Shown: piece after piece, positions 22,602 to 50,183 of the stretch
Numbering within the stretch: position 1 is the first letter of the stretch
How the letters are laid out: every line of letters begins with the position of its first letter
NCBI GenBank assembly: GCA_045543915.1
Contig: JAZPXZ010000037.1
Location: 5,665-69,664, forward strand
Source of the DNA: Wujia sp.
GTDB taxonomy: Bacteria; Bacillota; Clostridia; Lachnospirales; Lachnospiraceae
Length of the DNA: 64,000 bases
Direction: 5' to 3'
Program-made: the position numbers and the translations under genes
The notes under the pieces: generated by a model
The model's database searches: none
Told to the model about the DNA's origin: nothing
Seen by the model: the letters and a program-made list of their open reading frames with translations, nothing else

Positions 22602-22720
22602 GGGCTGTGCACCGATATATACTGGCCGGCCTGCCTAGGGATTTGGCATCGCTGACACTTAAAACGGTCAGCTCAGCCAAACCCTGTCGCGGCCGGAATG
22701 TAGTTTGTTGGCACAGCTCC
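22602..22720 (+). repeat. Dispersed palindromic element, copy A
   Basis: Shares exact 18-, 24- and 14-nt blocks with the reverse complement of 50041-50164; outer stem GCTGTGC/GCACAGC. Confidence 0.85.
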
Positions 22721-32246: not shown

Positions 32247-32254
32247 AGACAGCA

Positions 32255-32322
32255 AGGATGTGCTAATTTACCTAGTCTCCCGGCCTGCCTAGGGTCGGTT
32301 TCAAAGTTATGGCATACATCCT
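32255..32322 (+). repeat. Dispersed palindromic element, internally deleted copy C
   Basis: CCGGCCTGCCTAGGGTCGGT (32280-32299) is identical to copy B; outer stem AGGATGTGC/GCATACATCCT. Confidence 0.7.
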
Positions 32323-32355
32323 AATAATTTACATAAACAAAGGAGATGTGATTAA

Positions 32356-33198
32356 TCACATCTCCTTTGCTATGTCATAAACCTCACGTTTTGGTATACC
32401 CCTATCTTTGGCTACCTGCTTTACAGCATCCTTCTTGTCTACACCTTGATCTATATAATGAGTCAAATGCTCCTCAACAGTCATACTGTCCCACTGGCTT
32501 CTAGCTTCTTCAAGAATGCTCTCTCTGCTTAAGCCTTCTACTACAATTATACACTCACCCTTTGGCTCTGTGACTTCATAGTGGGCTATAGCCTCCTCCA
32601 ATGTTGTAAGGAAGAAGGTTTCGTGTTTCTTGGTAAGCTCTCTACAGATAGTTGCTCTTCTGTTGCCTAAGGTGTCCAAAAGCTCTCTTAAGGTCTTTAT
32701 CAATCTGTGAGGTGCCTCATATATTATTAGGGTTCTAGTCTCTGCTTTAAGCTCCTCAAGGATATATTTCTTCTCCTTTTTATCTGCCGGTAAGAATGCC
32801 TCAAATGCAAATCTTCTGGTAGAAAGTCCTGACGCTATAACTGCATTTATGGCTGCACAGGCTCCCGGCACAGGCACCACTGTAATCCCTGCATCGTAGC
32901 ACTGCTTAACCAGCTCCTCACCAGGGTCTGATATACCAGGTGTTCCTGCATCAGTAATTACTGCCAGGCTCTTTCCCTCTAACATTTTGCCAACAAGCTC
33001 CGCAGCCTTCTCATATTTGTTGTGCTCATGATAGCTGGTCATTGGAGTTTTTATATCAAAATGATTAAGCAGCTTAATACTGTTTCTAGTGTCCTCAGCC
33101 GCAATCAAATCCACCTCTGACAGAATCCTCACTGCCCGATAGGTCATATCCTCTAAATTGCCTATTGGTGTTGCCACCAAATATAAGCTTCCACTCAT
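32356..33198 (-). CDS. rsmI: 16S rRNA (cytidine1402-2'-O)-methyltransferase
   Basis: LYLVATPIGNLEDMT, AAEDTR, DAGTPGISDPG, YEAPHRL, CRELTKKHE. Confidence 0.95.
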   Translation of the reverse strand: MSGSLYLVATPIGNLEDMTYRAVRILSEVDLIAAEDTRNSIKLLNHFDIKTPMTSYHEHNKYEKAAELVGKMLEGKSLAVITDAGTPGISDPGEELVKQCYDAGITVVPVPGACAAINAVIASGLSTRRFAFEAFLPADKKEKKYILEELKAETRTLIIYEAPHRLIKTLRELLDTLGNRRATICRELTKKHETFFLTTLEEAIAHYEVTEPKGECIIVVEGLSRESILEEARSQWDSMTVEEHLTHYIDQGVDKKDAVKQVAKDRGIPKREVYDIAKEM

Positions 33199-50035: not shown

Positions 50036-50040
50036 AAAAT

Positions 50041-50164
50041 AAGAGGATGCGCAATACTACTTCAATCCGGCCGCGACAGTGGTCGGGACTAAGCTGACCG
50101 TTTTAAGTGTCAGCGTGGACCGACCCTAGGCAGGCCGGCCAATAAAGTACATACGCATCCTCTT
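50041..50164 (-). repeat. Dispersed palindromic element, copy B
   Basis: Outer 11-bp IR AAGAGGATGCG/CGCATCCTCTT; core blocks identical to copy A in reverse orientation. Confidence 0.85.
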
Positions 50165-50183
50165 ATATTCTTTTTTACCTTGA

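Follow-up and report, generated by a model that had tools for sequence, protein, structure and literature searches.

The window, by which we mean the whole 64,000-nt stretch of DNA analysed here (G000:C37:5665-69664), comes from an assembly that spans 2.95 Mb in 111 contigs (37.8% GC), and carries three copies of a palindromic element in the gaps between genes. Copy A (22602..22719, plus strand) is full-length, a single hairpin of ~118 nt that scores 117.5 bits (R1). It lies between the stop of an ORF for an uncharacterised 206-aa protein (22585) and the stop of a convergent gene (22733) for an AAA ATPase of the DUF815 family. Its outer variable stem, P1, joins 22602..22610 (GGGCTGTGC) to 22711..22719 (GCACAGCTC), both given on the plus strand like the features that follow, and the T-rich CGCTTTATTT comes directly after it. 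Inside P1, the 5' AT-rich arm (22611..22625, ACCGATATATACTGG) pairs partially with the 3' arm (22697-22710), and the conserved GC-rich tip (22626..22696) is built from P2 (CCGGCC/GGCCGG), a GC/GC block, P3a (TAGGG/CCCTG), P3b (TTTGGC/GCCAAA), P4 (GCTGAC/GTCAGC) and the loop ACTTAAAACG.

Copy B, likewise full-length, lies on the minus strand (50039..50167; 141.9 bits) between convergent Sua5/TsaC-like and RpiB genes, and has the P1 TATAAGAGGATGCG/CGCATCCTCTTATA with the T-run TTATTTTTT next to it. The folding energies are -60.8 kcal/mol (z -5.8) for copy A and -66.4 kcal/mol (z -8.0) for copy B. A first-pass annotation of the window had connected the two copies through exact blocks, read on the plus strand in A and on the minus strand in B, and through linkers and outer stems that differ in sequence yet still pair. 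All of this holds: the blocks lie where they had been placed, with 0 matches expected by chance, the linkers are TTTGGC/GCCAAA in A and TCGG/CCGA in B, and the outer stems are GGGCTGTGC/GCACAGCTC in A and AAGAGGATGCG/CGCATCCTCTT in B.

Copy C (32254..32322, plus strand; P1 AAGGATGTGC/GGCATACATCCT) is an internally deleted derivative, in which P1, the 5' arm and CCCGGCCTGCCTAGGGTCGG are fused straight onto the 3' arm TTTCAAAGTTAT, so that CCTAGGGTCGG abuts the 3' arm. Only CCGGCCTGCCTAGGGTCGGT is common to copy C and the exact blocks of A and B. Directly after copy C follows a perfect 14-bp hairpin (32338-32369; AAAGGAGATGTGAT-TAAT-CACATCTCCTTT; -24.3 kcal/mol, z -9), which overlaps the stop of the gene 32356-33198 on the minus strand and probably serves that gene pair as its working terminator. 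The gaps of copies A and B hold no other terminator; the earlier remark that the elements occupy gaps with no separate terminator is therefore true for A and B alone, since the gap of copy C carries this hairpin. No promoter-like site occurs inside the copy B gap, and only weak ones occur near copy A.

Distribution and architecture of the family

An iterated nhmmer search found 39 full copies and ~10 fragments or remnants in the genome to which the window belongs (G000), so that of the three copies first counted A and B stand as full members of a much larger set and C as a deleted derivative. A covariance model built from the G000 copies and then run on related genomes gave 42 matches in G000 itself, 41, 35 and 53 in three congeners and 1-2 in two more, with 0 matches in 18 other congeners and 0 among 16 further families of the order. 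When one genome per species (~185,000 species) was scanned for an exact pattern, the family appeared in five ruminant-gut Lachnospiraceae MAGs only, obtained from roe-deer caecum, water-deer caecum and sheep rectum or, for two of them, labelled 'SIG'; pattern matches in Paracoccus and Rhodobacter were due to chance. The plasmid collection gave no match to the family, and the only two matches among viral contigs are chance ones in GC-rich DNA. When the window was searched against Rfam at gathering and permissive thresholds, no family reached its gathering score; the best sub-threshold match, to mir-72, scores 18.8 bits where the cutoff is 60 and reflects a hairpin similarity due to chance. Word and sequence searches of the literature returned no earlier description of the hairpin repeat family.

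The earlier annotation had described a dispersed REP/MITE-like family that it could not assign to any named one, and had named a lack of further copies, or an existing catalogue entry, as findings that would count against it. What was found is 39 full copies, ~40 copies per genome across the main carriers and no corresponding Rfam family. The hairpin repeat family is thus an undescribed, lineage-restricted one of uncultured gut Lachnospiraceae. It can be used as a lineage marker in MAG analysis, and it is also a source of assembly and alignment artefacts.

The element is non-coding, palindromic and ~130 nt long, and every one of the 39 copies forms one long hairpin with about 45-55 pairs in five helices. 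From the outside inwards, it consists of P1, the AT-rich arms, P2, the GC/GC block, P3a, P3b, P4 and the loop. P1 is a G+C-rich outer stem of 8-16 bp that is highly variable, always self-complementary and often flanked by A/T runs. The two AT-rich arms (consensus ATTTACTTTCTTGG and GAATGAAGTTTATTG) are partly paired, and the conserved, G+C-rich tip of ~73 nt has the self-complementary hexamer GGCCGG at its edges. Within the tip, P2 is CCGGCC/GGCCGG, P3a is TAGGG/CCCTG with an invariant T.G pair, and P4 is GCTGAC/GTCAGC; its loop of ~10 nt tolerates insertions, one variant being an extra small GTGC...GCA hairpin. Overall, the elements have 52% GC, against 38% for the genome.

Several copies outside the window depart from this plan. 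The copy at C110:22515-22795 carries a ~135-nt structured insertion within the P4 loop, which makes this loop a permissive cargo site. At C26:85274 and C89:8770, the outer module of P1 and arms bears an alternative tip of ~20 nt in place of the 73-nt one (GGTCGAC...GTCGGC and GGCCGAC...GTCGTGGCC), and both loci fit a modular, exchangeable tip.

That the family is kept for its fold, as the first reading of copies A and B had proposed, is supported by strong covariation in P1, P3b and the core and between orthologous copies. Among 84 distinct copies, taken from other genomes, 97.9% of core cells are paired, and the number of double-change cells is 103 against 31.5 in shuffles, a value reached in 0 of 500 shuffles; pairing falls to 17-45% once the partner is slid by 1-3 columns. 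P3b occurs in 54 variants among 118 distinct copies, including ~20 different fully complementary hexamers such as TTTGGC/GCCAAA, TAAAGC/GCTTTA, TCCCAC/GTGGGA and TCTCGC/GCGAGA. P1 is more variable still, with 111 distinct sequences among the 118 copies, and each pairs with its own partner at a mean of -22.5 kcal/mol as compared with -11.1 kcal/mol for the partners of other copies. Orthologous pairs show 47 double changes where 7 are expected under independence, and the pair is kept in 38 of the 47. With ~120 distinct copies, the family offers an unusually clean natural experiment in compensatory evolution.

Turnover of the copies

Orthologous sites in relatives, whose comparison the first-pass annotation had suggested, occur in filled, deleted and empty states. 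Site A is full in G000, internally deleted in G012 and empty in G003, G004 and G009, and in G019 only P1, the 5' arm and the end of the 3' P1 remain. Site B is occupied in G000 and in three related species (G003, G012 and G019). Sites filled elsewhere and empty in G000 fall into three states. At C99:5590-5632 and C1:1564-1610 there is a plain terminator, the stem of which is unrelated; at C26:59028-59182 the plain terminator has a stem that agrees with the P1 of other species; and C77 and C75 have internally deleted remnants.

Loss of the tip follows a recurrent pattern. The junction ...GGGTCGG|ATTGAAG... is found at five loci of the genome, copy C and 4 further ones, and lies between direct repeats GGTCGG. 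Since GGCCGG is its own reverse complement, it forms a direct repeat on either side of the tip, and slippage or recombination between these repeats would delete the tip as a block; the locus C77:37038-37142 is consistent with such a loss.

Four copies are nested within older copies, with break points just after CCTAGG and, where the 3' half of the older copy is still present, directly ahead of CCCTGT. In each of the inner copies (4/4), P1 is of the GGCTGTGC type. We considered that the core might insert into a pre-existing, abundant GGCTGTGC hairpin, and discarded this idea, as there are only 5 solo hairpins, of which 4 or more derive from full copies by deletion; P1 is therefore counted as part of the repeat and not as its target. 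No direct repeat indicative of a target-site duplication appeared at nested copies or in comparisons of filled and empty sites, none of which are near-identical, and an exact-protein look-up of a neighbouring ORF, aimed at near-identical strains with empty sites, returned no record.

Species often differ in the subfamily of the copy that occupies an orthologous site. For C106:22255 and its counterpart in L053, the elements are 67% identical within flanks that are about 92-95% identical, and at site B a P1 common to three species is combined with differing arms and tips. Across all 36 orthologous pairs, the element was less similar than its flanks in 10, which we read as replacement.

The interior between the P1 arms may also be reversed. 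This was seen in 10 of 36 orthologous comparisons, with flanks collinear up to P1; the interior of copy B, for instance, is inverted relative to two species, and base-by-base alignment confirms two of the inversions (C5:5465 vs L009; C23:22513 vs L076). The arrangement has a feature of invertons, namely inverted repeats around a segment that occurs in both orientations. None of the 6 pairs whose flanks reach 90% identity or more shows a flip, as against 10 of 30 more diverged pairs; flips accumulate with divergence, and the process hence looks slow, unlike fast phase variation. The inverted arms may, for example, recombine, or a strand may switch from one arm to the other. Same-site replacement and in-place inversion are both rarely documented behaviours.

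Altogether, the family spread in an ancestor of a few ruminant-gut Lachnospiraceae, inserting at or beside gene 3' ends and into its own older copies, and its turnover is ongoing through tip deletions, same-site replacement and in-place inversion.

Two observations outside the window touch on these sites. At C48:32065-32517 of G000, about six tandem units of ~65 nt, each a GGGTAT...ATACCC hairpin, fill an intergenic gap, and a copy of the present element stands at the corresponding position in three related MAGs (L026, L032 and L084); the C48 array is a second, unrelated repeat family. Two accessory genes of G000 that are absent in relatives, a 475-aa ATPase-like ORF (C26:71946-73373) and a 246-aa ORF (C1:28232-28972), both adjoin element copies or remnants, and element sites may coincide with indel hot spots.

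Constraint and placement at gene ends

The closest paralogues in G000 are 91.5% identical and the median is 72%, so there is no sign of recent transposition. In 14 same-lineage orthologous pairs, which were picked by high element identity, the elements are 86-100% identical and their 300-nt, mostly coding flanks 71-95%, with arms 95.5% and tips 94.5% conserved. For C45 and L094, 133 of 133 element positions are identical and the flanks are at 84%; cases of this type are very unlikely under neutrality, despite the selection of the pairs by identity.

The elements stand close to the ends of genes, the median distance from stop codon to the start of P1 being 12-15 nt. Based on crude ORF calls in G000, 16 of 37 intergenic regions with an element are convergent compared with 151 of 2312 without one (odds ratio 10.9, p = 7e-10), and none of the 37 is divergent; in a wider set, 59 of the 100 contexts that could be assigned are convergent. 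The orientation of the element with respect to its neighbours is random, with 11 against 9 copies in convergent contexts and, between tandem genes, 10 in the same and 8 in the opposite direction.

As to terminator likeness, all copies have a G+C-rich P1, and a T-run (at least 5 T in 9 nt) follows the stem on 32% of terminator-relevant sides versus 18% of others, being somewhat commoner past the element's own 3' end. With only ~32% having a T-run, many copies are not canonical intrinsic terminators. Furthermore, the element-free congeners G004 and G009 have no hairpin of any kind at site A, so a terminator is dispensable there. Judged from sequence and position, the hairpin is probably a bidirectional terminator or a structure that protects 3' ends. 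In genome annotation, the elements would serve as markers of where transcription units end on their 3' side, and they should not be entered as sRNA genes.

We thus lean, with moderate confidence, towards an old mobile hairpin repeat, MITE- or SPRITE-like, that is retained as a predicted bidirectional terminator or 3'-end hairpin. It would have spread as a non-autonomous mobile element, its movement requiring a trans-acting enzyme, and would now be inherited mostly vertically. The host would keep the copies since the hairpin acts on either strand, as a bidirectional intrinsic terminator, as 3'-end protection or as both, and a hairpin at the 3' end would serve convergent and tandem genes alike. 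The family would then be evidence for a mobile repeat kept at gene ends, probably as a terminator.

The strongest competing explanation dispenses with the host: a selfish, decaying MITE-like repeat without function, tolerated only downstream of genes, the pairing of which is kept by template switching within the hairpin. Indeed, pairing could partly be kept without selection by such correction in palindromes, and the conserved internal loop has been turned into perfect pairing in two copies. The many deletion derivatives and remnants and the lack of a hairpin at site A in element-free species also point this way, and an enrichment between convergent genes is expected for merely tolerated insertions too, as has been argued for pneumococcal repeats (PMC3049150). 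Blanket template-switch correction, however, should erase asymmetric features, and yet the asymmetric bulges, the internal loops and the invariant T.G pair are retained in 84 of 84 copies. Several orthologues, moreover, are 95-100% identical where their coding flanks are at 80-90%, and in orthologous pairs unpaired sites change twice as fast as paired ones (16.5% against 8.6%). A purely neutral palindrome is insufficient, because the asymmetric features are conserved and the paired sites change slowly, and we regard the selfish reading as rather unlikely.

Enzyme- and RNA-based explanations and known repeat systems

A second alternative ascribes the behaviour of the family to an enzyme. In a REPIN/RAYT-type or other enzyme-dependent system, GGCCGGCCTGCCTAGGG and CCCTGTCGCGGCCGG would be inverted binding sites for a putative single-copy HUH transposase, recombinase or nuclease that moves the element, inverts it and swaps its tip, and that would have been missed because mobile genes are incompletely covered by the MAG. 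In its favour are an internal, paired conserved sequence that resembles the two REP units of a REPIN, a tip that has GGCCGG at either edge and is lost or swapped as one unit, the in-place inversion of interiors, and the fact that species have either many copies or essentially none.

The search for the enzyme itself speaks against it. Y1_Tnp (PF01797, RAYT) had 0 matches in G000, which is 98.4% complete, and matched in the positive-control genomes; the suggestion of a RAYT/TnpA(Y1) gene flanked by such copies, made from the window alone, accordingly finds no support. Self-BLAST of G000 for IS-like repeats returned paralogous genes, RHS/ChW repeats and a ~600-bp repeat, and no transposase. Clustering of the ORFs beside ~125 copies gave no recurrent neighbour except orthologous housekeeping genes. 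No split copy flanks a gene on the kilobase scale, solitary 5' or 3' blocks all being short deletion derivatives, and no IS with ends matching P1 was found. A recombinase motif scan together with Pfam detected two Xer-like tyrosine recombinases only and no serine-recombinase motif. Since mobile genes are frequently missing from MAGs, the absence of an enzyme is weak evidence; yet the slow accumulation of flips described above also fits a spontaneous process better. Taken together, we consider an enzyme-dependent system improbable.

This search yielded two by-products outside the window. Three paralogous proteins of ~300 aa with a QRNYKDTVFRMIF motif are encoded at C39:67719-70175 and C23:42127-42816; they have no Pfam match at E 1e-3, number 3 copies only, and none lies near an element, and a suspected identity as Rpn/YhgA-like nucleases finds no Pfam support. 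The ~600-bp repeat is non-coding, G+C-rich and highly structured, is located at contig ends of G000 (C49:39205-39804; C16:218-917; C20:1-572; C51:15733-16298; C86:5728-6281; C64:~90; C61:1-393) and is 91-96% identical between copies. It contains neither a long ORF nor a tRNA, and may be an RNA or mobile element of which several copies have been collapsed.

A related proposal concerns the tip alone: the ~73-nt tip would be an exchangeable cassette that a putative trans-acting recombinase or nuclease inserts, excises, swaps and inverts in terminator hairpins. We think this a long shot; if true, it would amount to a site-specific system 'editing' terminators genome-wide, and not to a MITE decaying by slippage.

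It is very improbable that the family is a structured RNA, whether a strand-specific gene or a cis-regulatory one (for example an sRNA, a 3'-UTR motif bound by a protein, or a processing site), that is active only through transcription of its forward strand. Strong covariation is what one would expect of such an RNA, the invariant U.G wobble would be C.A on the opposite strand, G.T mismatches outnumber A.C ones in the variable stems (95 vs 56, a modest excess and a weak strand bias), and a T-rich tail more often lies past the element's own 3' end. What speaks against an ncRNA gene tied to one strand is that orientation relative to the flanking genes is random and that the same copy is flipped between species; the lack of a promoter-like site in the copy B gap, the merely weak ones near copy A and the lack of an Rfam match argue in the same direction. 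Integron attC sites are dismissed from the sequence, since the elements lack the GTTRRRY core site and are scattered in either orientation instead of forming one array.

Most known families of small dispersed hairpin repeats belong to Proteobacteria and streptococci. The present family is of this kind and is a member of no named family. REP and REPIN-RAYT systems consist of dispersed extragenic palindromes at gene 3' ends, in which inverted conserved units form a long hairpin and which are preserved over long times. The present family resembles them in its 3'-end placement, its inverted conserved units within a long hairpin and the age of its copies. It differs in its larger size and modular build, in having no conserved GTAG-type 5' motif and in that G000 has no Y1 HUH (Y1_Tnp) gene, the defining trait of a RAYT-type system.

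ERIC/IRU and Correia-type MITEs of Proteobacteria are imperfect palindromes of ~100-155 bp that occur in transcribed intergenic regions in either orientation, and their RNA hairpins affect termination, processing or mRNA stability. As with the present family, their copy number differs sharply between related species. ERIC and Correia elements end in conserved inverted repeats and duplicate a TA target. In the present family, it is the termini that vary most and an internal block that is conserved, no duplication is visible and the host belongs to another phylum. More generally, the family shares with MITEs a length below 300 bp, the lack of an ORF, multiple copies and presence/absence polymorphism between genomes, but it has no conserved terminal inverted repeats in common with a parent IS (111 of 118 P1 are distinct).

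The closest known analogue is the pneumococcal SPRITE, in terms of placement, copy number and terminator likeness (PMC3049150). SPRITEs of S. pneumoniae and S. mitis, described in 2011, are AT-rich (28% GC), with a single 18-bp duplex, a long U-rich tract and AAAA/TTTT ends, and have been proposed to be co-opted as terminators (PMC3049150). Compared by description, the present family differs from them in its 52% GC, its five helices, its removable tip and its Lachnospiraceae host, as well as in its hypervariable compensated stems, its nesting and its in-place inversion. Yet both occur in tens of copies without an ORF, a cognate IS or a readable target duplication, and both are confined to one or two related species. 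Both, finally, form a hairpin that exceeds normal terminator stems and is followed, at some of the present copies, by a T-rich tract, and both are most strongly enriched between convergent genes, near the 3' ends of coding sequences.
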